A stretch of 58,990 nt of DNA, the filler included. It is 4 parts of 4 records of this genome, joined end to end, with 100 filler letters (N's around TTAATTAATTAA, not from the genome) between each part and the next. Parts side by side here need not be neighbours in the genome. Positions count along the whole stretch, not along the records: positions 1 to 24,564 come from SRR22947725_1345; 3 more parts are not named here. One strand, written 5' to 3'. Within the stretch, counting starts at the first letter, position 1, and every line of letters begins with the position of its first letter. The notes under the pieces are model-generated. The model was not told where the DNA came from. It did no database searches and was given only the letters and a program-made list of their open reading frames with translations. Below are positions 1,681-38,935 of the stretch, in pieces. A program made the position numbers and the translations under genes.

Positions 1681-1700
1681 AAGTAGAAGGATAGAATCTA

Positions 1701-2504: not shown

Positions 2505-2523
2505 AAACAATCTGAGAAATTAT

Positions 2524-3828
2524 ATGAATAACTTTAGTTATAGCGAACAACTAATTGAATTTATTAAAAATTCTCCGACATCTTACCATGCTGTAGATAA
2601 TATGAAGAAGTTTTTAAATTCTGCAGGGTTTGAATGTCTAGATGAAAATGAACCTTGGTGTCTAAAAAGTAATAATGGATATTACGTAACTCGTAATGAT
2701 TCATCTATTATCGCGTTTATTGTTGGGGCCAAAGAACCTATAGAAACAGGTATTCGTCTTGTTGGGGCACACACTGACAGCCCTTGCTTAAAAATAAAAC
2801 CTAACCCAGAGATCCACAAAAAAACATATTTTCAATTAGGCGTAGAGGTTTATGGTGGAGTGCTCCTAAATACATGGTTTGATCGTGATCTGTCTATCGC
2901 TGGGAAAGTTACCTTTAAAAATAAAGATAATAAGCTTGCTGTAGCATTAATAGATTTTAAAAAACCAATCGCTGTTATCCCAAGTCTAGCAATTCACTTA
3001 AATAGAGATGCAAATAATGGCCACATAGTTAATCCTGAAACTGGGATGCGTCCAATCTTAACTGTACGCCACACAAATAATGAAGATTTTAGAGATATTT
3101 TGGCTAAAAAACTCGTATCTCAATTATCTTCGACATCAAAATCTGACAACTTGTCAGTAATAGATTACGATCTTTCCTTTTATGATACTCAGCCACCAGG
3201 TTTAATCGGGCTTAAAAAAGACTTCATATCTAGCGCAAGACTCGATAATCTTTTAAGTTGCTTTGCTGGTGTTCAGGCAATCATCAGAACTAATAAACAA
3301 GTAACTAGTATGCTTGCCTGCTATGATCATGAGGAAGTTGGAAGCACCTCTGCTATAGGTGCAAATGGAGCATTTATGGAATCAGTGCTCAATCGGCTTT
3401 TTGATCAGGCCGAGACTAAGTCCCGTGTCGTTGCAAACTCAATGCTTATTTCTACTGATAATGCACATGGCGTTCATCCCAATTTTTTAGATAAACATGA
3501 TGAAAATCATTCTCCTATTATAAACAACGGGCTCGTAATAAAAGTTAACGCCAACCAGCGTTATGCTACCGACAGTTTGACATCTTCATTACTGAAAAAC
3601 TTATGTAATGATATCAGTATCCCAACACAATCTTTTGTTAATAGAGCTGACATGTCATGCGGGAGCACTATTGGACCTATCACAGCAGCAAATATTGGTA
3701 TAAAAACTATTGACATAGGCGTTCCTACATTTGCCATGCACTCTATAAGGGAAATTGCAGGTAAAGAAGATGCTTTTTACTTGTTTCAAATGCTGAATAA
3801 GTTCTTGGATACAGAAAAATTACAATGA
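2524..3828 (+). CDS. apeB: M18 family (aspartyl) aminopeptidase
   Basis: Metal-ligand motifs GAHTDSP, RLDNL, DHEEVGS, DNAHGVHPNF and MHSIRE. Confidence 0.9.
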   Translation: MNNFSYSEQLIEFIKNSPTSYHAVDNMKKFLNSAGFECLDENEPWCLKSNNGYYVTRNDSSIIAFIVGAKEPIETGIRLVGAHTDSPCLKIKPNPEIHKKTYFQLGVEVYGGVLLNTWFDRDLSIAGKVTFKNKDNKLAVALIDFKKPIAVIPSLAIHLNRDANNGHIVNPETGMRPILTVRHTNNEDFRDILAKKLVSQLSSTSKSDNLSVIDYDLSFYDTQPPGLIGLKKDFISSARLDNLLSCFAGVQAIIRTNKQVTSMLACYDHEEVGSTSAIGANGAFMESVLNRLFDQAETKSRVVANSMLISTDNAHGVHPNFLDKHDENHSPIINNGLVIKVNANQRYATDSLTSSLLKNLCNDISIPTQSFVNRADMSCGSTIGPITAANIGIKTIDIGVPTFAMHSIREIAGKEDAFYLFQMLNKFLDTEKLQ

Positions 3829-3945
3829 GGCCCTTTATTGCAAAAGTATAGCCGAAAATTGCAGTGCTCATTTTATGATTATAAAATACTTTTTACGCCC
3901 AATAAAAAGCTATAATCTTTATATTTATCTTAAACAGGATTTTAG

Positions 3946-4980
3946 ATGGAAGTTAAATCGAAAAACGTCTCGAATAGGGTGCTTACAGGAATAACTACAA
4001 CAGGAACACCTCATTTGGGTAACTATGTGGGTGCTATTCGACCTGCGATAGAAGCTAGTAAAGAAGAGAATGTTGATAGCTTCTTCTTCCTTGCGGATTT
4101 TCATGCAATGATAAAGTGCCAAGATCCCAACGTGGTGCATCAATCAACAAAAGAAATTGCTGCAACATGGTTAGCACTTGGTTTAGATCCCAATAATGTA
4201 ACATTCTACCGACAATCTGATATTCCCGAAATACCCCAGTTATGTTGGTACTTGATGTGCGTGGCCCCGAAAGGACTTATGAACAGAGCACATGCATATA
4301 AAGATGCGGTCCAAAAAAATATTGATTCTGGTGAAGATAATGATTTTGGAGTAGCTATGGGTTTGTACTCATATCCAATTCTGATGGCAGCAGACATACT
4401 CATGTTTAATGCTACCAAAGTTCCAGTTGGAAAAGATCAAGTTCAGCACATAGAAATGACCAGAGATATAGCTCAACGCTTTAATTATCTTTATGGTAAA
4501 CAGTTCTCTTTACCGCAAGCTGTCGTTAACGACCAAATCTCACTCTTACAAGGCACAGACGGTAGAAAAATGAGTAAGAGTTACGGAAATACTATTCCGC
4601 TGTTCTTATCTGAAAAACAGCTAAGAAAGCAAATTAATAAAATTAAAACAAATCTCCTAGAGCCTGGAGAGCCGAAAGATCCAGACTCTTCTGTAGTGTT
4701 CCAAATCTGGAGAGCGTTTGCTTCACCAGATCAAATTAGCTATATGCGAGAATCATTTAGAAATGGAATTTCATGGGGGGATGCAAAAAAGCAACTTTTT
4801 GAGCTTGTTAATGCGGAGCTTCAAAAACCGAGAATTCTTTATAATGAGCTACTAGAGTCTCCTGATTATATTGAGTCCATATTATGCAAAGGAGCCATAA
4901 AAGCTAGAAATCATAGCGCATCATTCTTAAAAAAAATCAACATTAGTATGGGGCTACAATCACTTGAAATAAGAAACTAG
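3946..4980 (+). CDS. trpS: Tryptophan--tRNA ligase
   Basis: Motifs HLGN (HIGH-like), KMSKS, YPILMAADIL and VPVGKDQ. Confidence 0.96.
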   Translation: MEVKSKNVSNRVLTGITTTGTPHLGNYVGAIRPAIEASKEENVDSFFFLADFHAMIKCQDPNVVHQSTKEIAATWLALGLDPNNVTFYRQSDIPEIPQLCWYLMCVAPKGLMNRAHAYKDAVQKNIDSGEDNDFGVAMGLYSYPILMAADILMFNATKVPVGKDQVQHIEMTRDIAQRFNYLYGKQFSLPQAVVNDQISLLQGTDGRKMSKSYGNTIPLFLSEKQLRKQINKIKTNLLEPGEPKDPDSSVVFQIWRAFASPDQISYMRESFRNGISWGDAKKQLFELVNAELQKPRILYNELLESPDYIESILCKGAIKARNHSASFLKKINISMGLQSLEIRN

Positions 4981-5015
4981 AGGGATTGCCAATAGTTTCG
5001 AGCTCGGAAAACTAG

Positions 5016-6311
5016 CTAGTAAAGTCTATTGATGACTTTTATAATTCCATTGGTTAATTTTTTTAGATCCTCAGACGAGATATTATAAGGAGGCATTAAA
5101 TATATTCTTTTATCAAAAGGCCTTATCCATATACCTTCGGAAACGAACTCTTTTTGTATTTTACCAACATCAATTTTTTCAAACATCTCAACAACGCCAA
5201 TCGCCCCCAAACATCTGACATCTTTTACACTACGATGCTCGTCTAGACCTGAAAGCTGATCTTTTAACTGGGTGTTGATTCTTTTAATGGTTGTCTGCCA
5301 ATCAGTATCTAAAAGTAAGTCGATACTAGCATTGGCAACAGAGCAAGCTAGAGGATTTCCCATATAGGTGGGTCCATGCATAAAAACACCTGAACCTCCT
5401 GAGCATATAGTGTTACTTATCTTGCTCGTACAAAGTGTTGCTGCTAGAGTCATGTAGCCTCCTGTTAATGCCTTGCCAAGGCATAAGATATCGGGACTTG
5501 TATCTGACCACTCGCATGCAAATAACTTGCCTGTGCGACCGAAGCCTGTAGCAATTTCATCTGCAATCAACAAAACATCATAACTGTCACACAGTTTTCG
5601 AATTTCCTGCATATAAAATGGAGAATAAAAATTTAACCCTCCGGCACCCTGCATTACTGGCTCAATAATTACAGCTGCTATATTTTGGGAGTTTGCTTCT
5701 AATTTCGATTTAACGTCATATATATATCTATCTTCCCAGGCATCATGGAAACCACAAATAGGTGCTTCTGCAAAAATTTGCTTATCAAGAGTATGGTTAA
5801 AAAGGGAATGCATTCCATTTACTGGATCACAGACAGACATAGCTCCTAATGTATCGCCGTGATACCCCTTTTTAAAGCTGAGAAACCGAGACTTCTCAAA
5901 ACGCTCTTGAGATGACCAAAATTGTAGGGCCATCTTAAGAGCCACCTCTACACTCACTGATCCAGAATCTGACAGAAACACCTTATCTAGACCATCAGGA
6001 GTAATGTCAACTAAAGTCTTACAAAGAGTAGCGGCAGGCTCATGCGTAATACCTCCAAACATGACATGAGAAACCTTGCCTATCTGATCTATCAAAGCTT
6101 TATTTAACGCAGGATGGTTATAACCATGGATAGCTGACCACCATGAAGACATGCCGTCTATCAATTCTGTGCCATCAGATAATTTTAATCGGACTCCAGA
6201 GGCACTCACGACCTGGTATGCTGGTATAGGTTTTGTTAAAGAAGAGTAGGGATGCCATATATGATTCTTATCAATAATAGCAACCTGCTCTGGTGTTAAA
6301 GGCTTTGTCAT
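5016..6311 (-). CDS. bioA: Adenosylmethionine--8-amino-7-oxononanoate aminotransferase
   Basis: Motifs IWHPY, DGMSSWW, GYHGDT, DEIATGFGRTG and CLGKALTGG (PLP lysine). ATG at 6311 chosen as start. Confidence 0.95.
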   Translation of the reverse strand: MTKPLTPEQVAIIDKNHIWHPYSSLTKPIPAYQVVSASGVRLKLSDGTELIDGMSSWWSAIHGYNHPALNKALIDQIGKVSHVMFGGITHEPAATLCKTLVDITPDGLDKVFLSDSGSVSVEVALKMALQFWSSQERFEKSRFLSFKKGYHGDTLGAMSVCDPVNGMHSLFNHTLDKQIFAEAPICGFHDAWEDRYIYDVKSKLEANSQNIAAVIIEPVMQGAGGLNFYSPFYMQEIRKLCDSYDVLLIADEIATGFGRTGKLFACEWSDTSPDILCLGKALTGGYMTLAATLCTSKISNTICSGGSGVFMHGPTYMGNPLACSVANASIDLLLDTDWQTTIKRINTQLKDQLSGLDEHRSVKDVRCLGAIGVVEMFEKIDVGKIQKEFVSEGIWIRPFDKRIYLMPPYNISSEDLKKLTNGIIKVINRLY

Positions 6312-6404
6312 AGTTAGCACTAGTTTGGACGAATGTTTGTAGAAAAAGATAAGTAAATAAAATTAATAATATCAATAAAAATTTCTTAAGGCACTCTAAG
6401 GTAT

Positions 6405-7088
6405 TTATTTGCCTCCATTCATTTCAGACCATCCATTCGGATCGTTTAAGTACTCTTCAATCGTCAGAATTGATGACTCGTCTATATAACTAGTATCTCT
6501 GCATACAGATAAAACATCTTTCCATGTCGTAAGGAAATGTAACCTTATATCATTTTTAGCAAGTATTTTTTTTGTGTCAGGAAAAATATCGTAAAAAAAG
6601 AGGACAAAGGTATCGGTAACTTCTGCACCGGCCTCTCGAAGAGCATTACAAAACTTAATTTTACTACCTCCATCTGTAGTTAAATCCTCGACTAAGAGAA
6701 CCTTGGACCCTTCTGTGATATGACCTTCTATTTGCGCATCCTTACCAAATCCTTTTGGTTTCTTTCTTACATACTGCATTGGCAGAGAAAGCCTTTCTGA
6801 AAGCCAAGCAGCAAAGGGTATACCAGCTGTTTCTCCACCAGCTATAGCATCTATAGACTCAAAGCCAATATCTCTCAGCACCACGGAAGCTCCAAAATCC
6901 ATAAGAGCCGACCTAACTCTAGGGTAGGATATTATCTTTCTACAGTCGATATAGACTGGACTTGCTTTTCCAGATGTCAGAATATAAGGATCACTTGGCC
7001 TAAAATTGATTGCCCCAATCTCTATTAACATTTTAGCGCTCAAGGATGCTATAAGTTTTTTATCAGGGAAGCTATTAAATGACATCAC
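6405..7088 (-). CDS. pyrE: Orotate phosphoribosyltransferase (SPVYIDCR type, alphaproteobacterial-like)
   Basis: Motifs [13 protein letters not shown] and [10 protein letters not shown], plus the PRPP loop [12 protein letters not shown]. Confidence 0.93.
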
Positions 7089-7148
7089 TACTCCAGAACA
7101 AGAATTAAAAAATTTACATACTTAATATTGCCAGAATAGGCTAGTTTT

Positions 7149-7166
7149 ATCTATGTATACATAGAT
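7149..7166. promoter_or_regulatory. Perfect 18-bp palindrome, candidate operator in the divergent pyrE/rhodopsin intergenic region
   Basis: ATCTATGTATACATAGAT is its own reverse complement. Function is inferred only. Confidence 0.4.
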
Positions 7167-7340
7167 GAAGTTCATAATTTAAGTAAATTCTTTATTTTAG
7201 ATGATAATGATTACCATCTTTTATTAAAATTAACTGGTGTGTCTGGCCTGCAGCCCTGAAGATTCAATAATAAACAGGTATTTAATTTCATTAAATATCA
7301 ATTATATGTAATTTTATATTAGTTTTTTAGCAAAAATCTA

Positions 7341-7369
7341 TTGACTAAAAGGTCTTCATTGTTCAAATT
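7341..7369 (+). promoter_or_regulatory. Candidate sigma70 promoter for the proteorhodopsin gene
   Basis: TTGACT at 7341-7346, a 16-17 bp spacer, then TG-n-TCAAAT/CAAATT as a weak (extended) -10. RBS AGGAGA lies just before ATG 7516. Confidence 0.35.
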
Positions 7370-7515
7370 AGACAGGTGATTCCTTTAGGCAAACAATTTG
7401 TCTTGCAAAGAAAGGCTCATTTAAGTAGTAATTTGAAGCAGGCGTTAAGACTTGCAAGCTTTAATATTTACATTAATGTGAAAATAAAACTTAATAAAAG
7501 TAAAAGGAGAGAAAC

Positions 7516-8211
7516 ATGGAAACGACAGGTTTAAATCCTAGTGATTATACAGGAGTCAGTTTCTGGATTATATCCGCAGCAATGGTTGCGGCAACTTACT
7601 TTTTCACTGTTGAACGCGATCGCGCAGAAGGCAAGTGGAAAACATCTTTAACCGTTGCGGCGATGGTAACTGGTATTGCAGCGATTCACTATTTCTACAT
7701 GCGAGGGGTTTGGGTATCAACAGGTGCAAGCCCGACAGTCTTCCGCTATGTCGATTGGTTGTTAACTGTACCACTGCAGATTGTCGAGTTTTTCTTGATT
7801 CTTTCTGCTATAGCTGTAGTTCGTGCTGCTTTATTCTGGAAGCTGTTAATTGCATCCGTTGTGATGCTAGTTGGCGGATATCTCGGTGAAGTTGGAGCTA
7901 TGTCCTATTGGCCAGCATTCGCAATTGGTATGGCTGGTTGGATATATATCATCTACGAAATCTTCGTTGGTGAAGCTAGTCAAATCAGCGCAGCCCAAGG
8001 TACTGAAGCAAGTAAAACTGCCTTCAATGCACTGCGTTTAATTGTAACTGTTGGGTGGTCAATCTATCCCATAGGTTATATCGTAGGTGCTGGTGCAGGT
8101 GGTGATGCTGCATCTAACCTCAACCTTGTATACAACCTTGCAGACTTCGTTAACAAGATTGCATTCGGTGTTGTTATTTGGGTAGCAGCTACATCTTCGT
8201 CTAAGGCTTAA
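7516..8211 (+). CDS. Proteorhodopsin, DTE proton pump, Gln at spectral-tuning site (blue-absorbing type), no signal peptide
   Basis: Seven TM helices. Helix C RYVDWLLTVPLQIVE gives D80/T84/Q88/E91 (D97/T101/Q105/E108 in GPR numbering). H58 corresponds to H75. Helix G ADFVNK carries the retinal-binding Lys. Confidence 0.96.
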   Translation: METTGLNPSDYTGVSFWIISAAMVAATYFFTVERDRAEGKWKTSLTVAAMVTGIAAIHYFYMRGVWVSTGASPTVFRYVDWLLTVPLQIVEFFLILSAIAVVRAALFWKLLIASVVMLVGGYLGEVGAMSYWPAFAIGMAGWIYIIYEIFVGEASQISAAQGTEASKTAFNALRLIVTVGWSIYPIGYIVGAGAGGDAASNLNLVYNLADFVNKIAFGVVIWVAATSSSKA

Positions 8212-8242
8212 TAACCTGTAGTTCGAATATCAAGTAGCAAGT

Positions 8243-8288
8243 TTGGCGTTATAGGGCGATATATTTAGTCCTGTAACGCCAATTTTTT
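8243..8288 (+). terminator. Intrinsic terminator after proteorhodopsin
   Basis: 15-bp stem TTGGCGTTATAGGGC / GTCCTGTAACGCCAA (two G-U pairs) followed by T6. Confidence 0.75.
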
Positions 8289-8367
8289 ATAATATCTTCT
8301 CAATTTTTCGTAATTTGTATTTAAGAGGGTGCTGTAAAAAATTATAGTTTTTTAAGGGGAGAAAAGA

Positions 8368-9111
8368 ATGGAATTAAGTGATTACAATCTCGTCTTTAAT
8401 TCATTGTCCTTTGCTATTGCAACATTTGGAGCAGCTACAGTATTTATGTTTGCTCAGCGTAGCCAAGTTGCTCCAGCATATAAAACAGCACTTACGCTAT
8501 CAGGCTTAGTATGCCTAATTGCCTTCTATCATTATGTCAGAATGTTTGAAAGCTTTGAGCATGCATATACCCTTAAAGATGGAACAGTGATTGCTACTGG
8601 CTCAGCATTCAACGATGCATATCGTTATGTTGACTGGTTACTAACTGTGCCACTGCTTTTACTAGAACTTGTCCTTGTGATGAGATTGAGTAAGAAAGAT
8701 ACTTATTCAAAAGGCATCAAGCTAGCAGTCGCTTCAGCATTAATGGTTGTTCTAGGTTACCCAGGCGAAGTTGCCGCTACTGGAGAGGAGCGTTGGTTGT
8801 GGTGGACTGCTGCAATGATCCCATTTTTTTACATTGTAAAAGAATTGATTATAGGTTTAGGTGCCTCAATAAACTCTCAACCCACTAGTGTTAGAGGATT
8901 GGTAGCTAATGCAAGAACTTTAACTATACTTTCTTGGTGCTTCTACCCAATAGTCTTTATTCTACCAATGCTTGGCATAGGTGCCTTAGAGCTTGGTAAA
9001 ATTAATGCTGCTGTTCAAGTGGGTTATACAATTGCAGATATTGTTGCTAAAGCAGGTTTCGGTGTTATGATCTATATGATTGCTCAACGTAAATCTGATG
9101 CTGGCGCTTAA
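8368..9111 (+). CDS. Xanthorhodopsin-like rhodopsin, DTE proton pump, Leu at tuning site, Trp at carotenoid-antenna window
   Basis: Seven TM helices. XR-family signatures YHYVRMFESF, FNDAYRYVDWLLTVPLLLLE (D89/T93/L97/E100), LGYPGE, SWCFYPI and QVGYTIADIVAK (retinal Lys). RBS AAGGGGAG. Confidence 0.93.
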   Translation: MELSDYNLVFNSLSFAIATFGAATVFMFAQRSQVAPAYKTALTLSGLVCLIAFYHYVRMFESFEHAYTLKDGTVIATGSAFNDAYRYVDWLLTVPLLLLELVLVMRLSKKDTYSKGIKLAVASALMVVLGYPGEVAATGEERWLWWTAAMIPFFYIVKELIIGLGASINSQPTSVRGLVANARTLTILSWCFYPIVFILPMLGIGALELGKINAAVQVGYTIADIVAKAGFGVMIYMIAQRKSDAGA

Positions 9112-9130
9112 GTAGTAGAAAAAATACAAG

Positions 9131-9160
9131 AAAAAACGCGCCTTATTGGCGCGTTTTTTT
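9131..9160 (+). terminator. Intrinsic (potentially bidirectional) terminator after the xanthorhodopsin-like gene
   Basis: AAAAAA-CGCGCC-TTATT-GGCGCG-TTTTTTT. Confidence 0.85.
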
Positions 9161-9184
9161 ATACTGAGATATATGAGAGGGCCT

Positions 9185-10123
9185 ATGAAATATTATATGC
9201 CTCCAGAGGCAGATGAATGTCTTCATCTTGTAAAAGAGGAATTTGCAAGAAGTTTTGATATAGAAGAATCATTCATATCTGATTGGCTTAAACATCACAA
9301 TAAGTCGAAAGGAAAGTGGATAAGGGCCCGTTTGGCACTTGCTTCAGGTGGCTTGCTAGGGCTTTCAAGTCAAACGTATATCAAATGGGCAGTTGTGTGT
9401 GAACTGATTCATAGTGCCTCCCTTTTGCATGACGATATATGTGATAAAGACTCAATGAGGCGAGGAAAAAAGTCTCTCTGGAAAGAGTTCGGTATACCTG
9501 CAGCTGTTTGTACGGGAGATTACTTAATTGCAGAGTCATTTAGAAAAATTACTGAAATAGAGCAAGGGTGGCATCAAAATATCCTATTAAAACTACTATC
9601 ATGCTCAGTAAAAGAGATAATATTTGGCCAATCACTAGACGTCAGTTTAGATCATTTAACGCTAACTAAAGATCAGTGTCGAAAGATAGCTATTGATAAA
9701 ACTGCTCCATTAATCGCGTTACCTATGATGGGTATGTTTCGCTGCAAGGAGCTCACAGAAGATGAATGTGTTGCCCTAAAAGAGATCTCAAACGAACTTG
9801 GTTTTGCTTATCAATATTTAAACGATATAGAAAATATAATCGGCTTTGAGCAGGAAATATCGTCAGATTTTCTAAAGGGTCATCCAAATTTTATGGTGAT
9901 TCGAATACTTGAGAATTTATCAGCTCTAGAGAAAAAAGTCGTATTTAAACAGCCAAGCAAATTTAATGATTTTATTTCTGAAAGAAATTTTATTCAGTCA
10001 CAAGAAGAGATAGTCGCTATATTAAAAAATGCTATGTTAAATAATCATCGATTACCTATAATTATTCAACCAATCATCGAGTCACTAAAAGATGAAATAA
10101 TTAAAAGGCTTAACTTGATATGA
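9185..10123 (+). CDS. crtE: Polyprenyl (geranylgeranyl) diphosphate synthase
   Basis: Motifs GKWIR, ELIHSASLLHDDICDKDSMRRG, GQSLD and DKTA. First gene of the crt-blh cluster. ATG 9185 follows GAGAGG, whereas the ORF-track start at 9146 lies inside the terminator. Confidence 0.85.
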   Translation: MKYYMPPEADECLHLVKEEFARSFDIEESFISDWLKHHNKSKGKWIRARLALASGGLLGLSSQTYIKWAVVCELIHSASLLHDDICDKDSMRRGKKSLWKEFGIPAAVCTGDYLIAESFRKITEIEQGWHQNILLKLLSCSVKEIIFGQSLDVSLDHLTLTKDQCRKIAIDKTAPLIALPMMGMFRCKELTEDECVALKEISNELGFAYQYLNDIENIIGFEQEISSDFLKGHPNFMVIRILENLSALEKKVVFKQPSKFNDFISERNFIQSQEEIVAILKNAMLNNHRLPIIIQPIIESLKDEIIKRLNLI

Positions 10124-11589
10124 AAAGAGTTGCTATTATCGGAGGAGGTTTTGGTGGCATTGCTGCCGCGATCAGATTGAGAGCAAGAGGGAATAAGGTA
10201 ACCATATATGAACGTCTAGATAAATTAGGGGGCAGGGCACAAGTTTTCCAAAGAAATGGCTATCTCCATGATGCTGGACCTACTGTAATAACAGCGCCTA
10301 ATCTATTTTATGAGCTATTTGAATTATTTGATGAAAGCTTAGAAGATCATCTTGAGTTCAAACCCTTAAACACTTGGTATAGATTCCATTTCAACGATCA
10401 AACAGAGTTTGATTATGGATCCGATCGAGAAAAAATGCTTAGCCAAATTGAAGAATTATCTCCTGAGGATGTTTCAGGCTACTTAGACATGCTCAAAGAA
10501 TCAAAAGAAATATTTAAGCTCGGATACGAAAAGTTAGCGGGACATCCATTTCACAGACTAACAACAATGCTCCGTTATGCCCCAGATATTATCAAAATGA
10601 AAGGCTACCGTTCTGTTTATACCTTTGTATCTAAACATATAAAGCACCCAAATCTACGTCAAGCATTTTCAATTCAACCACTCCTAGTTGGAGGCAATCC
10701 TTTTACAACATCCTCGATATACTCACTTATTCATGCGCTAGAACAAAAATGGGGTATTTTCTTTTGTATGGGCGGGACAGGAAAACTTGTACTTGAACTT
10801 GAAAAATTAATGTTAAGGAACGGCATTGAGATAAATTATTCATGTGATGTGAGTCATTTTTCTACATCAAAAAAATTAATTACAAGAGTCAACTTTACAA
10901 ATGAAGAAAGCAAGGAATTTGATTATATTGTAAGTAATGCTGACCCAATACAAGTATCCAAAGAATTGCTAAAGAATGAAAAAATATCTCTTCATAATCG
11001 ACTAATAAATAAATATGCGAAGCACTCGATGGGCTTATTTGTATTATTTTTTGGGTCAACAAAATGCTATGAAAATGTTGCTCATCATACGATTTGGATG
11101 GGTCCTAGATACAAAGAGTTACTTGAAGATATATTTGACAACCATCATTTATCAGAGGATTTTTCTATATATCTTCACAGGCCTACCTGTACAGATAAAT
11201 CTTTCGCTCCAGATAAACATGATAGCTTCTATGCACTTGTGCCAGTTCCAAATCTTAAAGGTGGGCAAAATTGGTCTGCAATAAAAGAAGAATTCTCCAA
11301 AAGAATTTTAGGTGCTCTAGACAAGACAATCATGCCGGGTATTAATGACAATGCTAGAGAAATTTTTTGTATGACCCCTGAAGATTTTAAAACTAACTAC
11401 AGAACACCATTCGGAAGTGGATTTTCCATCGCACCAATCTTAACTCAGTCTGCGTGGTTCAGGACACACAATCAAGACGATAGATATAAAAATTTATTCT
11501 ATGTAGGAGCCGGCACCCATCCTGGAGCAGGAGTTCCCGGAGTCATAAATTCAGCGAAAGTAGTAGAAAGAATTCTTTATCATGACTAA
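10120..11589 (+). CDS. crtI: Phytoene desaturase
   Basis: FAD motif IIGGGFGG, DAGPTVIT, QSAWFR and YVGAGTHPGAGVPGV. ATGA overlap with crtE. Confidence 0.96.
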   Translation: MKRVAIIGGGFGGIAAAIRLRARGNKVTIYERLDKLGGRAQVFQRNGYLHDAGPTVITAPNLFYELFELFDESLEDHLEFKPLNTWYRFHFNDQTEFDYGSDREKMLSQIEELSPEDVSGYLDMLKESKEIFKLGYEKLAGHPFHRLTTMLRYAPDIIKMKGYRSVYTFVSKHIKHPNLRQAFSIQPLLVGGNPFTTSSIYSLIHALEQKWGIFFCMGGTGKLVLELEKLMLRNGIEINYSCDVSHFSTSKKLITRVNFTNEESKEFDYIVSNADPIQVSKELLKNEKISLHNRLINKYAKHSMGLFVLFFGSTKCYENVAHHTIWMGPRYKELLEDIFDNHHLSEDFSIYLHRPTCTDKSFAPDKHDSFYALVPVPNLKGGQNWSAIKEEFSKRILGALDKTIMPGINDNAREIFCMTPEDFKTNYRTPFGSGFSIAPILTQSAWFRTHNQDDRYKNLFYVGAGTHPGAGVPGVINSAKVVERILYHD

Positions 11590-12469
11590 TTATTCCCATG
11601 TGATGAAGAATCATGGAAAAACTTTTTTTTGGGCTACAGCATTTCTCGAAAAGAAAACTGCTAATAATTTATACTCGGTATACGCATTTTGCCGCCGTAT
11701 TGATGATTTGATAGATAAAAATCCAAACCATGACACCTCATACAAAGATTTTTTTACGGCAAAAAATGCATGGGATAAAAATAAATATACCGATGCATTT
11801 GATGAGCTAAAAAATATAGATAAAGAGTTTTTACCAAGGGAAGATATTCTTAAAGAATTCTTTATAGGGCAAACGAGCGATATTACCCATAAACAACCTG
11901 ATAATATCAGTGAACTTCTTATTTATTGCTATCGAGTAGCTGGTGCTGTTGGTCTGATGGTTTGCGACGTCTTAGGAATTAAAGATCCACGCTTAAAATA
12001 TTTTGCTATTGATCTAGGTATTGCAATGCAGCTCACGAATATATGCCGTGATATAAATGAAGATGCTTTGATAAATAGGGTTTATTTACCAAAAGATATG
12101 ATCAATATAGAGCTTGAAAATTACAAAAACCCGACAAAAGAAGAGATAAAAAAAATTAATTCAGCAAGAAATGCTTTATTGAGTTTGGCAAATAAATATT
12201 ACAAGAGTGGGGAAAAGGGTATAGCTCATCTACCATCTAGAACAGCAAGAGCGGTTCTCATTGCATCAAGGCTTTATCAAAATATAGGGATAAAAATTTT
12301 AAATAGAGAAGTTTCTTATGAATCATATCGAGTTTATCTGAATGTATTTGAAAAACTGCTCATAACAATAAAGTTAATATTTAAACCAAATATAAAGAAA
12401 AATATTGAAAATCATAATGAAGTGTTACATTCATCTTTAATAAAACTTCCTGATGTCCATATAAAATGA
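11582..12469 (+). CDS. crtB: Phytoene synthase
   Basis: Motifs GKTFFWA, YAFCRRIDDLID, YCYRVAGAVG and LGIAMQLTNICRDINED..RVYLP. Confidence 0.95.
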   Translation: MTNYSHVMKNHGKTFFWATAFLEKKTANNLYSVYAFCRRIDDLIDKNPNHDTSYKDFFTAKNAWDKNKYTDAFDELKNIDKEFLPREDILKEFFIGQTSDITHKQPDNISELLIYCYRVAGAVGLMVCDVLGIKDPRLKYFAIDLGIAMQLTNICRDINEDALINRVYLPKDMINIELENYKNPTKEEIKKINSARNALLSLANKYYKSGEKGIAHLPSRTARAVLIASRLYQNIGIKILNREVSYESYRVYLNVFEKLLITIKLIFKPNIKKNIENHNEVLHSSLIKLPDVHIK

Positions 12470-13599
12470 AAAAAATATACGATTTAATAGTAATCGGAGC
12501 AGGGTTGTCGAGCCTAATGTTTTTGAAGCAATACCTAAAAAAAACTAATGATCAAAAAATTCTTCTGCTCGAACAAAAAGATAGTATTAATAGTGATCAA
12601 ACATTTTGTGTTTGGGAAGGGCCAGGGCTACCGAATGTTACAGATGAGTTTCAATTAAACCCAAAGAAAATTTGGAAAAAAATAGTTTTAAATAGTCTTA
12701 ACTATGAAATCAAAAGAGATACCCAGCTATACAGCTATGTTTGTTTTGATGGTAAAGAAGCACTCGAAAGCTTATCCAGCTCATGTAATGAGAAAGTTAC
12801 AACTATAAAAAATGAAAAGGTCACTCAAATAGTCAGTGAAAACAATATTCAAGTTGTTACCACTAACAGTAACACTCATTTCGGTAAAATCATTGTTGAT
12901 AGTAGAAATAATATTAAACAGCAAGAAATAAAATCACCATTAATTCATCAAGCTTTCGTCGGGAGCGAAATAGAACTTACAAAAGAACGATTTAATCCTG
13001 ATGAAGTGACACTGATGTCATTTATAAGAAAGAAAAATCAGATTGAATTCGTATATATACTACCTTTTACAAAAAAGAGGGCACTTGTTGAAACAACAGT
13101 TTTTTCAATAGAACCTGAGCTTAAAGCTATAAAAAATACACATAAAGAAATCCTCAAAACCTATGAGCCTTACAAAGTAATAAGGCAAGAAAAGGCAATT
13201 ATCCCTATGGCTGTTATTTCTCCGGTTAGAGAAAAAGGAATACTCAAGATTGGTATAGGGGGAGGAATGATGAGAGCCTCTTCAGGTTATTCAATGAGGA
13301 GGATTGCTAATTGGGCAATCAAGATGGGGGATTACAGGCTAAATGAAAATAATATCTCTACATTCAGGTATCACTCTAATAAGTGGTTAAATTACCTCGA
13401 TAAAATCTTCTTAAATGTTATCCTCAAATACCCAGAAAAAGGTCCATATTTGTTCATGATGCTATTTAGGCGAGCAAAAATGCCCCCATTAATAAGATTC
13501 CTATCAGATAAACCATCGGGTGCTGATTTAATAAATATACTATTGTGTATGCCTAAAAGGCTAATGCTGAAAGGTTTAGCAAAAAAGAAAAATGACTAA
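12466..13599 (+). CDS. crtY: Lycopene beta-cyclase
   Basis: N-terminal IGAGLS Rossmann motif, FVYILPF..RALVETT and E.AIIPM; positioned between crtB and blh. Confidence 0.88.
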   Translation: MKKIYDLIVIGAGLSSLMFLKQYLKKTNDQKILLLEQKDSINSDQTFCVWEGPGLPNVTDEFQLNPKKIWKKIVLNSLNYEIKRDTQLYSYVCFDGKEALESLSSSCNEKVTTIKNEKVTQIVSENNIQVVTTNSNTHFGKIIVDSRNNIKQQEIKSPLIHQAFVGSEIELTKERFNPDEVTLMSFIRKKNQIEFVYILPFTKKRALVETTVFSIEPELKAIKNTHKEILKTYEPYKVIRQEKAIIPMAVISPVREKGILKIGIGGGMMRASSGYSMRRIANWAIKMGDYRLNENNISTFRYHSNKWLNYLDKIFLNVILKYPEKGPYLFMMLFRRAKMPPLIRFLSDKPSGADLINILLCMPKRLMLKGLAKKKND

Positions 13600-14488
13600 A
13601 GTTAATAAACATCAAATTTATTTCATTATTTTTTCCGCGATAACAATTCTCCTATGCGCTATGTCTGGCATTCTTATGATAAACAAGCCAGAAGTTAAAC
13701 TAAATATAAGCATAATAATGGTTATTTCTATGAGCCTTATAGGTACTATAGGTATAGCACATGGTGCACTAGATGGGAAAATTATATGGAAGCATTCAGC
13801 TCGAACAAGTGCTAGGATAAAGTTATATTTACTTTATATACTCTTTACTTCAAGTGGTGCGTTAATTTGGTTTTTTTATCCATTTGGTGGGTTAGTTTTA
13901 CTACTGATAATGTCATCAGTACATTTTGGCGTATCTGATTTAAAGTTCATAAATGAAATGAATTTTGCTTCTAAGGTTTGCTGGGGTGTTGCTATGGCAT
14001 TCTTGCCGATAGCCTTCAAACCAAATTTAGTAATATCTCTATTTTACGATTTAACACAAGTTAGGATACAACCAGAAACATTTGGTGCTATAAATATTAT
14101 AGTATTAATTTGTATAATCAATTTTTGTGTAAGTTTGTATAAAATTGCACAAGAGAGGAAAAAGAAAGGGAAGAATATATTTGAGTTAAAGCTGTTGAGT
14201 GCTGAAATGACGGTATTAATTTGTCTAGCTTATTTCTTAAGCCCACTTATCTGGTTCTCGATATATTTTTGTGGATTACACGGTATACGAGCACTTATAG
14301 ATAGTGATTTTAGGATATTTCCGGATATATTATGGTTGACACTATTTACTGCGCCTATTTCAATAATAATCTTTTTATTCAAATGGGAATATAGTCTAAA
14401 TAGCCTATTAATTATCTTTCCGGTATTAGCAAGTTTGACCATTGCGCACATGCTTCTACCTAAATTAAGAGAAATTGTAAAACCTTAG
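13592..14488 (+). CDS. blh: Beta-carotene 15,15'-dioxygenase (Brp/Blh family)
   Basis: Membrane protein with His motifs GIAHGALD, SVHFG, FCGLHG and LTIAH; last gene of the retinal cluster. Confidence 0.9.
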   Translation: MTKVNKHQIYFIIFSAITILLCAMSGILMINKPEVKLNISIIMVISMSLIGTIGIAHGALDGKIIWKHSARTSARIKLYLLYILFTSSGALIWFFYPFGGLVLLLIMSSVHFGVSDLKFINEMNFASKVCWGVAMAFLPIAFKPNLVISLFYDLTQVRIQPETFGAINIIVLICIINFCVSLYKIAQERKKKGKNIFELKLLSAEMTVLICLAYFLSPLIWFSIYFCGLHGIRALIDSDFRIFPDILWLTLFTAPISIIIFLFKWEYSLNSLLIIFPVLASLTIAHMLLPKLREIVKP

Positions 14489-14499
14489 AAAAAAATATT

Positions 14500-15153
14500 T
14501 TAGTCTGGCTGTTTAATGTATCTCAAATAGGCTAGTTTTTTATCAATTAATCCGTATTTGTTTGCAGCGTCGTCATCGCTTATAGATAAAGGAATAATAA
14601 CATCTTGACCGTTAAGCCAATTTGCTGGGGTAGCTATAATATGTTTATCAGTTAACTGTATAGCGTCTAAGGCTCTTAAAATCTCAGAAAAATTTCGGCC
14701 TACAGCCATAGGGTAAGAGAGTGTTAACCTTATTTTTTTGTCTGGTCCTATTATAAATACGGTTCTTACAGTGGCGCTATCCTGAGCTGTTCGTCCGTCA
14801 GGCAAATACGCGTCTGAAGGGAACATGTTGTAGAGTTTTGAAACAGTCAAAGAGGTATCTTCGATAATAGGGAAGGCAACTTTAGTGGATGATATAGACT
14901 CAATATCTTCCTTCCATTTTATATGATCTTCAATGCTATCTACAGACACTCCGATGACTTTAGTATTTCTATTTTTAAACTCTAACGACAGGGCTGCTAA
15001 AACTGAGAATTCTGTTGTACAGACTGGTGTGAAATCTTTCGGGTGTGAGAACAGAATAGCGTAGCTTTTACCAATCCACTTATGGAACTTAATTAGGCCA
15101 TCTGTAGAATTAGACTCGAAGTTAGGAGCAATATCATTTATAAGTAGAGACAT
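14500..15153 (-). CDS. 1-Cys peroxiredoxin (Prx6 family)
   Basis: Peroxidatic motif FSHPKDFTPVCTTE, plus GRNFSEILRALDA and ATPANW. GAGG RBS lies upstream of ATG 15153/15156. Confidence 0.93.
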   Translation of the reverse strand: MSLLINDIAPNFESNSTDGLIKFHKWIGKSYAILFSHPKDFTPVCTTEFSVLAALSLEFKNRNTKVIGVSVDSIEDHIKWKEDIESISSTKVAFPIIEDTSLTVSKLYNMFPSDAYLPDGRTAQDSATVRTVFIIGPDKKIRLTLSYPMAVGRNFSEILRALDAIQLTDKHIIATPANWLNGQDVIIPLSISDDDAANKYGLIDKKLAYLRYIKQPD

Positions 15154-15260
15154 CATGATCCTCATTTAATATTAAATTTATTAATTTTAGATTTGTTGAA
15201 CGAAGTATAACAAATAATCGGTAGTTTAAATTTTAATAAAAAATATTATATCAAGTTTTA

Positions 15261-15288
15261 ATTTAACATAATATACATTATGCGCAGT
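15261..15288 (-). other. dif: dif site (XerC/XerD chromosome dimer resolution site)
   Basis: Minus strand reads ACTGCGCATAA-TGTATA-TTATGTTAAAT versus E. coli dif GGTGCGCATAA-TGTATA-TTATGTTAAAT: 26/28 identical, with a perfect XerD arm and spacer. It is intergenic, and gene orientation converges here. Confidence 0.93.
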
Positions 15289-15291
15289 TAT

Positions 15292-16662
15292 TTATTTAAG
15301 TGTCACGAACTCTTCCGCTGCGGTTGGGTGTATAGCGATTGTATTATCAAAGTCTTTTTTGGTAGCACCGGACTTGATTGCTATAGCTAAGCCCTGAATT
15401 ATTTCTCCTGCATGATCACCAACCATATGGCAACCGACTACCTTGTTAGTACTTTTTACAACAATCAACTTCATAAAGACTTTCGTTAAGGCGCCCCCTA
15501 ATGTCTGTTTCATCGGTTTAAAGTGGGTTTTATATATTTGTAGATCATCCTGAAACTTAATTAAGGCTTCTTCCTCTGTATAACCAACTGAGGCTGAATT
15601 TGGTGTACTAAATATTGCTGTAGGTATATTGTAGTAATTAAAAAAAGGTTTCTTACCTTCAGTAAAATAAGCGGATAAAGCCATAGCCTCTGCAATTGCG
15701 ACAGGTGTTAACTCTTTTTTTCCTATTACATCACCCAAAGCAAATATACTTTTAATTGAGGTTCTGTAGTATTCATCAACCTTAATTGTACCGTCTCCAT
15801 TAAGAACTATATTTAACTCATCGAGCCATAATTTACTTATATTCGGTACTCTTCCAGTTGCGCACATGATTAGATCAGCCTGGATTTCACTACTAGATTT
15901 TATTTTAATTGAGTACTTATGCTGATTACTTTTTTTTGATAACTCAGTTAACATATTCTCATTTATAGACTCAACCTCTTTCGAGAAATATGTTTTAACA
16001 CCATGATTTATATATTCTTCTTTAATTTTATTTCTTATATCTATATCAAATCCTTTTAAAAACAAAGGACCTCGATGCATTAGGTGTGTGTCTACACCCA
16101 TCCCATTAAAGATCCCAGCAAATTCGACCGCTATATAGCCTCCGCCTACTATCAAAATCTTTTTTGGTAATGATTTTAAGAAAAAGGCTTCATTTGAGGT
16201 AATTGTGTGTTCGTTTCCTGGGAAATTAGGCACATATGGCTTTCCCCCAGTAGCAATTAATATATTTTTTGCACTATAGGTTTTTTTCTCAACCTTTACT
16301 GAATGTGGTCCAGTAATAAACGCACTACCCTTTATAATTTTTACGCCAGACTTTTCTAAAAGATTTTTATATATTCCATTTAGTCGACCTATTTCTTTAT
16401 TTTTATTTCTTATTAGCCTTTGCCATTCAAAGCTACTGCCCTCAATACTCCACCCGAAACCTTCGGATTCTTTAAATTTTTGACCATACTCCGATGCATA
16501 TACAAATAATTTTTTTGGTATACAACCAACGTTCACACAGGTACCACCAAGTTCTTGAGATTCTACTATTGCAACTTTCAGACCTTTGCTAGCACATATT
16601 CGCGCGCACCTAACACCACCAGACCCTGCTCCGATTATAAGAAGCTCATAATCATATCGCAT
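15292..16662 (-). CDS. gor: Glutathione-disulfide reductase
   Basis: GAGSGG, redox-active GGTCVNVGCIPKK, GGGYIAVEFA and C-terminal IHPTAAEEF. Confidence 0.95.
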   Translation of the reverse strand: MRYDYELLIIGAGSGGVRCARICASKGLKVAIVESQELGGTCVNVGCIPKKLFVYASEYGQKFKESEGFGWSIEGSSFEWQRLIRNKNKEIGRLNGIYKNLLEKSGVKIIKGSAFITGPHSVKVEKKTYSAKNILIATGGKPYVPNFPGNEHTITSNEAFFLKSLPKKILIVGGGYIAVEFAGIFNGMGVDTHLMHRGPLFLKGFDIDIRNKIKEEYINHGVKTYFSKEVESINENMLTELSKKSNQHKYSIKIKSSSEIQADLIMCATGRVPNISKLWLDELNIVLNGDGTIKVDEYYRTSIKSIFALGDVIGKKELTPVAIAEAMALSAYFTEGKKPFFNYYNIPTAIFSTPNSASVGYTEEEALIKFQDDLQIYKTHFKPMKQTLGGALTKVFMKLIVVKSTNKVVGCHMVGDHAGEIIQGLAIAIKSGATKKDFDNTIAIHPTAAEEFVTLK

Positions 16663-16672
16663 AAAAGTTACC

Positions 16673-18061
16673 TCAGTTATTTTTTGATTTAAACCATGAC
16701 AATTTTTCTTGTAACAACACTACTGAACCAATAATAATTAATGTTGGGGCTTTAGCACCTGCAGCTCTGACCATCTTCGGTAATCCCTGAAGGTCGGAAA
16801 CATAAGTTTTTTGATTTCTAGTAGTACCCTTTTCTATTAATGCAGCTGGAGTATCTGCATTCATACCAAATAGTATTAATTTTTCACAGATTATTTCTAG
16901 CCCATTCAAACCCATATAGAAAACTAAAGTTTGATTTGGTGCGGTTAGCTCCAACCAATTGAGATCTAAATAATTATTTTTCTGATGACCCGCTATAAAA
17001 CGAACTGACTGCGCATAATCCCTATGAGTTAAAGGTATTCCTGCATAACTTGCACAACCCGAAGCAGCGGTTATACCTGGTACCACTTGAAACGGAATAC
17101 CACAATCTCTTAAGTGCTCTATCTCTTCACCACCGCGACCAAATATGAACGGATCTCCACCTTTTAAGCGTAAAACACGATTTCCTGTTTCTGCATATTC
17201 AACTAATTTTTTATTGATATTTTCTTGCGTTACAGGATGATCACCTGCTGTTTTTCCTACGAACACTAGCTCGGCATCTCTTCGAACAAGAGCTAAGACC
17301 TCTTTTGATACTAGTCTATCATATAAGACTATATCTGCTTTTTGCATTAACCTTAATGCTCTAAAAGTCAATAAATCTGGATCTCCTGGCCCCCCACCTA
17401 CGAGATAAACTTCACCTAAATTTTTAGGTACATCATCTTCAATTTTCTTCTGAAGTTTAGCTTCTGCGACAAGATTTTTTTCTGCATACACCAACTCTGG
17501 TATTTCACTAGAAAATATCTCTTCCCAAAAAGCTTTACGGCTATTCGAATCAATAATTTTTTTCTTCACAAGTGGGCGAAATTTGCGGGCTAAATCGGCT
17601 AACCTGCCAAATCCTGACGGTATGATACTTTCTAATTTTGTTCTTAACATTCTTACTAAAACGGGAGCGGCTCCCCCGCTACTTATAGCTATCAATATTG
17701 GGTTTCTATCTACAATAGAAGGGAAAATAACTGTACATAATTCTGGTTGATCGACTACATTCACTGGAATATTTAAGGATTTAGCGTGGCTGGATACCTG
17801 GATATTAATCTTTTTTTTATTTGTAGCAGAAATGACTAGACAAGCATCTTTTAAGTCATTGTTTTCAAAAGGTTTAATGTATAACTTTATGGAATGTTTT
17901 TTTGCGAGGTCTTGGATTCTACTATCGATATCGGGTGCAATAATATCTATTATTGCACCCGCCTCTAACAATGGACGAATTTTTCTCAGCGCTATAGAGC
18001 CTGCCCCAACAACCACGCAGCGTCTATTTTTTATATTGTGAAATAAAGGTAAAAAGTCCAT
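16673..18061 (-). CDS. cysG: Siroheme synthase (multifunctional)
   Basis: N-terminal dehydrogenase/chelatase part (VVGAG, VNVVDQPE) fused to a methyltransferase part (VGGGPGDPDLLT, RLKGGDPFIFGRGGEE). Confidence 0.95.
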   Translation of the reverse strand: MDFLPLFHNIKNRRCVVVGAGSIALRKIRPLLEAGAIIDIIAPDIDSRIQDLAKKHSIKLYIKPFENNDLKDACLVISATNKKKINIQVSSHAKSLNIPVNVVDQPELCTVIFPSIVDRNPILIAISSGGAAPVLVRMLRTKLESIIPSGFGRLADLARKFRPLVKKKIIDSNSRKAFWEEIFSSEIPELVYAEKNLVAEAKLQKKIEDDVPKNLGEVYLVGGGPGDPDLLTFRALRLMQKADIVLYDRLVSKEVLALVRRDAELVFVGKTAGDHPVTQENINKKLVEYAETGNRVLRLKGGDPFIFGRGGEEIEHLRDCGIPFQVVPGITAASGCASYAGIPLTHRDYAQSVRFIAGHQKNNYLDLNWLELTAPNQTLVFYMGLNGLEIICEKLILFGMNADTPAALIEKGTTRNQKTYVSDLQGLPKMVRAAGAKAPTLIIIGSVVLLQEKLSWFKSKNN

Positions 18062-18083
18062 ATGTCCAATGTAACTTTATTTA

Positions 18084-19373
18084 TTAAGAACTACTAATAA
18101 CTGTTTGTGAGTTCATATATCGCTGCAGTACCTCTGGTATCTCTATTGAGCCATCTTCTAATTGATAATTCTCCATTATTGCTACTAGTGTTCTTCCAAC
18201 TGCCAACCCCGAACCATTTAATGTATGTAAATACTCAGGCTTTCCAGATGCTGGATTACGCCACCGAATCATTAACCGACGCGCCTGAAAATCACCAAAG
18301 CTACTACATGAAGATATTTCTCTGTAGTATTTTTGTGAAGGCAGCCAGACCTCAATATCATAGGTTACTGCTGCTGAAAAACCAATATCTCCACCACACA
18401 GCAAAACTGTTCTGTATGGAAGATTAAGCTGTCTTAAAATAGTTTCGGCATGTTCAATTATTGACTCGAGGGCCTGTGAAGTACTTTTTGGATCCACAAA
18501 TTGGACTAACTCAACTTTTTCAAATTGATGTTGTCGAATCATGCCTTTAGTGTCTTTACCATAGCTGCCCGCTTCACTTCTAAAGCAGGGTGTATTACTA
18601 GTAAGCTTTATTGGAAGTTTTTGGGCATCTATAATTTGGCCTCTATATATATTGGTTACTGGTACCTCTGCTGTTGGAGCAAGGTAAAGCTCCCTTTCAT
18701 CCTGGAGTTTAAATAAATCCTTCTCGAATTTTGGTAGCTGTCCTGTACCATATAAGGAGTCTTGATTAACAACATAGGGTACATTTACTTCCTCATAACC
18801 ATGTTTTAGCTGATGTGTATCTAACATGAACTGAGATAGCGCTCTATGCATTCTAGCAATATCGCCCCTCATGACAGAAAAGCGTGTGCTTGCTATTTTA
18901 GTAGCCGACTCAAAATCTAGCATACCTAAAGCTTCACCCAGTTCCACGTGGTTTTTGATCTTAAAAGGAAATTTTTTAATTGATCCCCAGCGTCGTACTT
19001 CTAAATTACTAGATTCATCTATCCCAGATGGCACAATATCGTCAGGTAGGTTTGGAATACTGCTTAGATATACCTCAAGCTCAGTTTTGACTATATTGAG
19101 CTTGTTTTCTGCTTCAGCGCAAGATTTCTTTAATTCCTCCCCTTTCTTTTTTAAGAGGTTGATCTCATCTTGATTTTGAGCCTCAGAAATAGCCTTCCCC
19201 ATCATCTTTGAATGGCTATTTCTTTCTGACTGTAAATTTTGTGAAATTCCTTGAATTTTTCGACGCTTAGACTCGAGTTCATCGAGATACTCAATATCTA
19301 AGACAAAACCTCGAATTAAAAGTTTTTTTGCAACCTCATCAGGTTCAGAGCGAATAAGCTTTACATCTAACAT
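18084..19373 (-). CDS. serS: Serine--tRNA ligase
   Basis: Motifs PTAEVP, CFRSEAGSYG, RQHQFEKVE and TLNGSGLAVGR. Confidence 0.97.
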   Translation of the reverse strand: MLDVKLIRSEPDEVAKKLLIRGFVLDIEYLDELESKRRKIQGISQNLQSERNSHSKMMGKAISEAQNQDEINLLKKKGEELKKSCAEAENKLNIVKTELEVYLSSIPNLPDDIVPSGIDESSNLEVRRWGSIKKFPFKIKNHVELGEALGMLDFESATKIASTRFSVMRGDIARMHRALSQFMLDTHQLKHGYEEVNVPYVVNQDSLYGTGQLPKFEKDLFKLQDERELYLAPTAEVPVTNIYRGQIIDAQKLPIKLTSNTPCFRSEAGSYGKDTKGMIRQHQFEKVELVQFVDPKSTSQALESIIEHAETILRQLNLPYRTVLLCGGDIGFSAAVTYDIEVWLPSQKYYREISSCSSFGDFQARRLMIRWRNPASGKPEYLHTLNGSGLAVGRTLVAIMENYQLEDGSIEIPEVLQRYMNSQTVISSS

Positions 19374-38835: not shown

Positions 38836-38935
38836 NNNNNNNNNNNNNNNNNNNNNNNNNNNNNNNNNNNNNNNNNNNNTTAATTAATTAANNNNNNNNN
38901 NNNNNNNNNNNNNNNNNNNNNNNNNNNNNNNNNNN
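38836..38935. other. Artificial contig linker
   Basis: N44-TTAATTAATTAA-N44. Confidence 0.99.

Follow-up and report, generated by a model that had tools for sequence, protein, structure and literature searches.

The stretch of DNA analysed here (hereafter the window; 58,990 nucleotides) consists of four contigs joined end to end, and at 7516-14488 it carries a rhodopsin cassette in which two neighbouring opsin genes are followed by the genes crtE, crtI, crtB, crtY and blh. This layout had been read from the letters alone in an earlier note on the same DNA, and seven open reading frames (ORFs), all on the plus strand, were indeed found where the note had put them:

7516 to 8211, plus strand: proteorhodopsin (PR), 231 residues, with a Gln-type (blue-type) tuning residue; assigned from Pfam, matches to solved chains and residues
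8368 to 9111, plus strand: xanthorhodopsin (XR)-family opsin, 247 residues; assigned from Pfam, matches to solved chains, residues and tree
9185 to 10123, plus strand: crtE (geranylgeranyl diphosphate synthase), 312 residues from ATG 9185; Pfam and a conserved start
10120 to 11589, plus strand: crtI (phytoene desaturase), overlapping crtE by 4 nucleotides; Pfam
11582 to 12469, plus strand: crtB (phytoene synthase), overlapping crtI by 8 nucleotides; Pfam
12466 to 13599, plus strand: crtY (lycopene cyclase), overlapping crtB by 4 nucleotides; Pfam
13592 to 14488, plus strand: blh (beta-carotene 15,15'-dioxygenase), overlapping crtY by 8 nucleotides; Pfam, sole copy in the complete genome G001

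Both opsins match Pfam PF01036 (Bac_rhodopsin; 7516-8211 at 5.7e-46 and 8368-9111 at 4.8e-37), and the five ORFs 3' of them match, in order, polyprenyl_synt, Amino_oxidase of the phytoene desaturase type, SQS_PSY, Lycopene_cycl and BCD. With all five pathway genes co-oriented beside the opsins, the locus is a rhodopsin photosystem gene cluster. The overlaps of 4 or 8 nucleotides among the pathway genes suggest that crtE-I-B-Y-blh forms one translationally coupled operon. A single blh match was found in each of three related genomes (G001, G008 and G019), which leaves both opsins with a single source of retinal, as had been proposed in the earlier note. For crtE the ATG at 9185 is a likelier start than the listed TTG at 9146, because a conserved hairpin at 9131-9160 overlaps the latter; the start MKY..MPPEAD, located 3' of the hairpin, is conserved in the related loci L001-L003, L005 and L006. 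No gene for a carotenoid ketolase or hydroxylase was found within the cluster, the remainder of the genome not having been searched for one.

Host and integrity of the cassette

The contigs of the window are separated by linkers of the form N44-TTAATTAATTAA-N44 at 24565-24664, 38836-38935 and 45069-45168, and the cassette lies wholly inside the first piece (1-24564). This piece, with a guanine-plus-cytosine (GC) content of 36%, differs from G001, a complete genome of 1.306 Mb in a single contig, at 35 of 18,001 bases (window 1041-19041; 99.8% identity), whereas pieces 2-4 (GC 0.35, 0.31 and 0.28) match it in short stretches only, at 64-75%. It follows that the source bin mixes at least two organisms, and the host is therefore named from piece 1 only. 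The serS gene of this piece shares 100% identity with its counterpart in G001, 73% with the one in G008 and 63% with the one in G017, all of one genus, and the nearest named records are Porticoccus. Judged from these comparisons, the host is a streamlined, genome-reduced Porticoccus (Gammaproteobacteria, Porticoccaceae), in agreement with the gammaproteobacterial assignment made before.

Taking in mind that the window is a join of four contigs, of which pieces 2-4 are foreign to the organism of piece 1, the adjacency of the two opsin genes could be suspected to be an artefact of assembly or binning. We find this practically inconceivable, since the cassette is inside the piece that is nearly identical to a single-contig genome, since independent contigs bridge the 8212-8367 spacer in all four public runs aligned, and since the same gene order is met in L001, L003, L005 and L006. 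In the DNA run X5 one contig of 21.6 kb spans 6900-10300 with 8 differences. The bridging contigs and the identity to G001 refute the artefact, and the junction, for which a misassembly check had been called for, is real. Of 23 listed runs, 19 (15 studies) contain at least half of the sampled words of the stretch, and the studies with near-identical DNA are labelled seawater, marine, salt marsh or aquatic.

Two opsins of different families

The first opsin is a proteorhodopsin whose D80, T84, E91, H58 and K214 align with the proton acceptor Asp97, Thr101, the donor Glu108, His75 and the Schiff-base Lys231 (GPR numbering) of the solved chains, and whose tuning residue, equivalent to position 105, is Gln88, encoded by the CAG codon at 7777-7779. 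Glutamine is present at this site in 119 of the 120 best PR homologues. Among solved chains the protein matches GPR 7b03 at 7.9e-83, BPR 4kly at 1.1e-80 and XR 3ddl at 9.9e-18. Its N-terminus is about 18 residues shorter than that of the full-length GPR chain 8cqc_A, and the extra residues of that chain we take to be a signal peptide. The nearest PRs outside the carriers of the cassette are 227 residues long, 84-87% identical, and named in their sources as Gammaproteobacteria or Pseudomonadales.

The second opsin belongs to the xanthorhodopsin family. It possesses D89, T93, L97, E100, H55 and K228, of which D89, E100, H55 and K228 align with Asp96, Glu107, His62 and the retinal lysine (XR numbering), and its matches to psXR 9wfa (1.2e-64), XR 3ddl (2.3e-63), GR 6nwd (6.3e-62) and Kin4B8 7ytb (1.6e-60) compare with only about 1e-23 for GPR chains. 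The two opsins share 33% identity, and in a tree of 37 rows they fall into two clades, the branches between which measure 4.6 and 5.0 changes per column; such a low identity and such long separating branches mean that they are not recent paralogues, and a recent-paralogue origin is ruled out by the family matches, the identity and the tree together. The difference at the tuning site (Gln88 against Leu97) is present in the translated ORFs, and the shared D-T-E motif, helix-B histidine and retinal lysine, which the earlier note had also pointed out, are confirmed by alignment to solved PR and XR chains.

The same note had called the second opsin xanthorhodopsin-like, and this holds for its family membership and fails for the antenna property. 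In xanthorhodopsins Gly156 in helix 5 permits a fenestration for the carotenoid antenna, Trp and Phe being common bulky alternatives, and the G153F variant of Kin4B8 has lost carotenoid binding (10.1101/2022.08.24.505090). In the second opsin Trp146 aligns with Gly156 of XR, Gly178 of GR and Gly153 of Kin4B8, the alignment with GR and psXR being ungapped; in place of the glycine that characterises dual-chromophore xanthorhodopsins it has a tryptophan. Among 81 sequences of the XR family this column holds Trp in 73 and Gly in 8, in a set which leans to Trp, the search patterns for the loci having included the Trp-containing peptide WLWWTAAM. In the PR the position is occupied by Phe135, which aligns with Trp146. 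Because Trp146 replaces the fenestration-opening glycine, no antenna use is expected for the second opsin, and with Trp146 and Phe135 in these places neither opsin should bind an antenna carotenoid. The second opsin is, to judge from its residues, a xanthorhodopsin by descent and not by the dual-chromophore property. Lys228, the D-T-E triad, His55 and Leu97 are kept in all 81 sequences compared.

Purifying selection acts on both opsins. In comparisons of five genome pairs the ratio of nonsynonymous to synonymous substitution rates (dN/dS) is 0.012-0.124 for the PR and 0.062-0.091 for the XR-family gene, and 0.040-0.192 for the crt genes where dS is unsaturated. Between the window and L001 the dS of the PR (0.31) is the lowest of nine genes compared, the others giving 0.51-0.79; the two PRs (window 7516-8211, L001 5145-5837) differ in one residue, while the adjacent XR-family proteins are 91% and the blh products 74% identical. 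The low dS of the PR fits a highly expressed gene under codon-level constraint, or may reflect a recent recombination.

Predicted expression units

Three features in and around the opsin genes bear on the way the cassette may be expressed:

8243 to 8288, plus strand: intrinsic-terminator-like hairpin after the PR gene, with a 15-bp stem, a 10-nucleotide loop and a T6 run; found by folding and conservation
9131 to 9160, plus strand: terminator-like hairpin A6CGCGCC-TTATT-GGCGCGT7 between the XR-family gene and crtE; found by scan, folding and conservation
7341 to 7346, plus strand: TTGACT, a -35-like box some 170 nucleotides ahead of the first PR codon, identical in the window, L001 and L003 when their upstream regions are aligned

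The hairpin behind the PR folds with -25.8 kcal/mol (z -5.64), none of 200 shuffles being as good, and compensatory changes preserve it in L001, L003, L005 and L006. The one behind the XR-family gene has z -2.49, equalled or bettered by 4 of 200 shuffles, and is conserved in all eight related loci checked, including L002 and the Methylophilaceae-type loci L004, L007 and L008, with compensatory changes in L001, L003, L005 and L006. A consensus scan left the PR hairpin unflagged, its loop being above the limit, and flagged 9131-9160 on the minus strand only, the stem being palindromic. Rfam gave no match at or above the gathering score in 6900-9300; the weak matches at 9131-9160, all under that score, were to terminator-bearing small RNAs and leaders.

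On the promoter side, TTGACT at 7341-7346 is a possible candidate for a PR promoter element, and the consensus promoter scan returned 17 promoter-like sites, fewer than the 32.4 seen in shuffles. The 427 nucleotides upstream of the PR (7089-7515) are unusually long for so small a genome. They include blocks invariant across three species, among them TAATATTGCCAGAATAGG near pyrE, and, downstream of the TTGACT box, an inverted repeat GCAAG...CTTGC; this region may be a regulatory leader. Both opsin genes are covered by contigs from RNA libraries (runs X14 and X16); as the run data are contigs, position 7485, where the X16 contig begins, does not mark the start of a transcript.

From the hairpins and the gene overlaps we infer that the PR, the XR-family gene and crtEIBY-blh are expressed as three units, between which read-through may occur. 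A separate terminator for each opsin could explain a very unequal expression of the two. Such inequality has been reported for 'Porticoccus arcticus', a sister species whose blue opsin is among its most expressed genes and whose green opsin is expressed about 64-fold lower (10.64898/2026.08.16.745133, main text). This expression difference could also be taken to mean that the XR-family protein assists or regulates the PR, for example as a hetero-oligomer subunit or a light sensor, and is not a second pump of any weight. There is a precedent of a kind, as the lysine-less XR-related rhodopsins of marine betaproteobacteria (Rh-noK) stand in tandem with a functional pump and were proposed to regulate this neighbour (cited in PMC10308929). 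We consider such a role improbable, since every one of the 81 XR-family sequences retains the retinal-binding Lys228, the D-T-E triad and His55, the dN/dS of the gene resembles that of the pathway enzymes, its nearest solved relatives are all proton pumps, and no transducer gene adjoins it. Two proton pumps remain our preferred reading of the pair.

Distribution, origin and comparison with known systems

Our genus survey drew 41 relatives, 25 of them in the genus. A rhodopsin occurs in six of these 25 genomes, and each of the six has exactly two, a PR and an XR-family opsin, adjacent on one contig in five carriers (G001, G008, G019, G020 and G024), while in G003 they lie at two contig ends. 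Every carrier has a genome of 0.8-1.7 Mb, and no rhodopsin was found in genus genomes of 2.1-2.7 Mb. In the family at large 98 of 201 genomes gave a rhodopsin match, 96 of them above the Pfam cut-off, and nine had two matches: the six carriers of the pair, G082 and G132, which have two PR-type genes each on separate contigs, and G155, from another genus of Porticoccaceae. Among the 201 family genomes searched the PR and XR pair is confined to a streamlined subclade of six. Since the named loci L001 and L003 probably coincide with surveyed genomes, they were left out of the count; the XR-family gene of L002 begins 12 nucleotides from the contig end.

The two matches of G155 (G155:C8:867286-867889) are fragments of a single rhodopsin, with two TGA codons inside, which was counted twice and may be a decaying PR. 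In G024, a carrier of the pair, the blh match (G024:C5:559818-560535) is split, with two TGA and one TAG inside, and may represent a disrupted dioxygenase gene or a fault of the assembly, the contamination of this genome being 7%.

Beyond the genus, the same seven genes in the same order (PR-XR-crtEIBY-blh) are present at about 77% DNA identity to the window in L005 and L006, from records titled Kordiimonadaceae and Emcibacteraceae, i.e. labelled as Alphaproteobacteria, and the genomes of both have exactly these two rhodopsins. The similarity begins about 12 nucleotides before the PR start and ends near the end of blh (window 14349 in L005 and 14501 in L006), and the upstream flanks are unlike the window and unlike each other. 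The serS of G042, the genome of L005, is only 48% identical to that of the window, and the 879-residue gene that flanks the cassette in L006 has a counterpart with 91% identity on a large contig of G042 and none above 32% in three Porticoccus genomes. The presence of the cassette in so distant a lineage implies lateral transfer. In the trees the two alpha-labelled cassettes are sister to the Porticoccus cassettes or nested among them. Approximately unbiased (AU) tests were run on the four Porticoccus cassettes as one clade against the two alpha-labelled ones: for XR with crtE this clade was already in the best tree (support 65/86), for crtI p = 0.125, and for crtB, crtY and blh p = 0.041, which is marginal and concerns a group named after the identities had been seen. 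Taken as sequence comparisons, these data offer good evidence that the seven genes have moved as a unit, in one direction or the other, between distant lineages.

In the rhodopsin-less congeners G005 and G017 pyrE and gor are near each other with unrelated genes in between, a glutamine-synthetase-like gene and a DAO oxidoreductase in G005, and MbnB-type, DUF2063, DoxX, LysR, CMD and GST genes in G017. The PRs of four other genera of Porticoccaceae are 57-64% identical to that of the window, and the crt genes beside them are 23-54% identical to its crt genes. The XR-family opsin is placed in a starred clade of nine rows together with the Methylophilaceae/Nitrosomonadales loci L004, L007 and L008, whose crt genes share 33-71% identity with those of the window. 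By this comparison the retinal genes group with the XR-family opsin and not with the PR, and the cassette looks composite, a Gln-type PR having been set ahead of an XR-plus-retinal module. The cluster at L004 1288-7375, from a metagenome-assembled genome titled Methylophilaceae, is nearer to the Porticoccus cassettes (XR 81%, crtI 71%) than to those of L007 and L008 and branches between the two groups in all trees; L004 may be a link between the betaproteobacterial and the Porticoccus modules.

A composite cassette may also be viewed as a remnant of successive gene transfers, with two spectrally redundant pumps in place of a two-colour system. The absorption maxima are indeed predicted only, by a tuning rule transferred across families. 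We regard this possibility as very improbable, because Gln is found in 119 of the 120 closest PR homologues and Leu in all 81 XR-family sequences, and because the pair is kept under purifying selection in six Porticoccus species-level genomes and in two of another lineage, which argues against a transient state.

With a high degree of confidence we propose a two-colour interpretation, namely that the window holds a laterally acquired seven-gene rhodopsin photosystem of a genome-reduced Porticoccus, with two proton pumps, one of blue type and one of green type, and one retinal operon, the pumping and the spectra being predicted. Going by characterised relatives, maxima of roughly 490 nm for the PR and of 520-560 nm for the XR-family protein would be expected. 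Both opsins would act as light-driven outward proton pumps with all-trans retinal supplied by the single crtE-I-B-Y-blh operon. The Gln-type PR, of the blue-absorbing type, would probably be the main pump, with a strong terminator of its own behind the gene; the second opsin, Leu-type and thus of the green-absorbing type, is of the kind found beside crtEIBY-blh in marine Methylophilaceae and, given Trp146, would work with retinal alone. The XR-family gene would also end in a terminator, after which the five coupled pathway genes follow. We can suggest that with two differently tuned pumps and one small pathway a heterotroph of 1.3 Mb can add light energy cheaply.

Several points weigh against this interpretation. 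Pumping, absorption maxima, terminator function and relative expression are all predicted properties, the last one being carried over from the sister-species preprint, and its figures belong to another species, P. arcticus. Pumping and spectra of both proteins are predicted from residues, and for the second opsin this means applying outside the proteorhodopsins a Leu/Gln tuning rule that was worked out within them. That the hairpins act as terminators is a prediction made from folding and conservation alone; the hairpin after the XR-family gene beats its shuffles only modestly, and the RNA contigs traverse both hairpins, so that some read-through, or DNA in the libraries, has to be allowed for. 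The stop-interrupted blh of G024 may put in doubt the intactness of the pathway across all carriers, and the Trp count at the fenestration site is biased by the search pattern.

A further proposal, for which we would put the chances at slightly less than even, is that the seven genes are a mobile plug-in, in which a Gln-type PR with its own terminator has been placed before a Methylophilaceae-type XR-crtEIBY-blh module, that all seven have since been passed as a unit between genome-reduced Porticoccus and a distant alpha-labelled lineage, and that a weakly expressed green pump is kept by selection for a role of its own. The missing antenna window of the second pump, the grouping of the retinal genes with it, the predicted terminator behind each opsin gene and the cassette in a distant lineage bear on how multi-rhodopsin cassettes are assembled and spread.

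Among the neighbours of the cassette, a peroxiredoxin gene (14500-15165, minus strand) separates blh from the glutathione reductase gene gor both in the window and in G001; the equivalent part of G008 gave no match to it, and about 300 nucleotides lie there between blh and gor. Elsewhere in the window three genes are cut at contig ends, a citrate synthase without its N-terminal part (38092-38835), a threonyl-tRNA synthetase without its C-terminal part (38936-40210) and a glutamate synthase large subunit that begins inside the central domain (42149-45034); these are assembly ends and not pseudogenes.

In the earlier note the novelty was made to depend on the host and the arrangement. Both the arrangement and its two-colour reading already appear in the bioRxiv preprint on P. 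arcticus (10.64898/2026.08.16.745133, 17 Aug 2026), so that the central reading is published for a sister species. According to the main text of the preprint, this bacterium has two adjacent opsin genes, both predicted to be proton pumps from positions 97, 101 and 108, one predicted blue and one green (Leu105) by position 105, with a complete carotenoid pathway directly 3' of them. The relatives of one opsin are gammaproteobacterial and those of the other betaproteobacterial, lateral acquisition was proposed, and the authors suggest a benefit from the use of different wavelengths; the lineage is reported to be abundant in Arctic surface water, and P. arcticus is stated to have a GC of 41.6% and 98% of its genes in common with Porticoccus sp. 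Uisw_050_02. Of the two-colour claim, the difference between the Gln and Leu residues stands, and light harvesting by the two pumps would be very uneven if the expression in the sister species is a guide. The main text of the preprint, figures and supplements apart, does not contain the words 'xantho', 'Methylophil', 'OM43', 'antenna', 'terminator' or 'Alphaproteobacteria', and what our analysis may add to it is the Methylophilaceae (OM43-like) XR type with its Trp, the terminator-like hairpins and the cassette of the distant lineage. In the accessible parts of the literature on SAR86, SAR92 and Porticoccaceae with xanthorhodopsin, and on tandem PR/XR genes, no earlier description was found; in the accessible SAR92-related texts 'xanthorhodopsin' occurs only in reference lists, PMC12421898 mentions a Porticoccus isolate and not its rhodopsins, and PMC12823576 holds nothing on a PR and XR pair.

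Compared with known proteins, the first opsin matches the green and blue PR structures 7b03, 2l6x, 4kly, 4knf and 4jq6 over its own full length (E about 1e-79 to 1e-83), with the tuning-site Gln of the blue forms. For the second opsin the closest solved structures are those of the antenna xanthorhodopsins (Salinibacter XR 3ddl, Gloeobacter 6nwd, Kin4B8 7ytb and psXR 9wfa), which share its D-T-E, His and Lys residues but carry the fenestration Gly where Trp146 is found here. Rh-noK is likewise part of a tandem pair that includes an XR-related marine betaproteobacterial type, yet it is without the retinal lysine, whereas the XR-family opsin here keeps K228 and is thus no Rh-noK.

On the level of whole loci, the marine Methylophilaceae/Nitrosomonadales L004, L007 and L008 have an opsin of the same subclade (75-81%) with the same fenestration Trp, the same XR-crtEIBY-blh order and the same hairpin after the opsin; they differ from the window in having no PR upstream in the DNA examined and in more diverged crt enzymes (33-71%). 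P. arcticus, as far as the preprint text describes it, belongs to the same clade of small genomes and shares the gene order and the two-wavelength reading. The lineage of the window differs from it in GC (36% in piece 1 against 41.6%), and between its cassette and the one of Porticoccus sp. Uisw_050_02 the DNA identity is about 73%.

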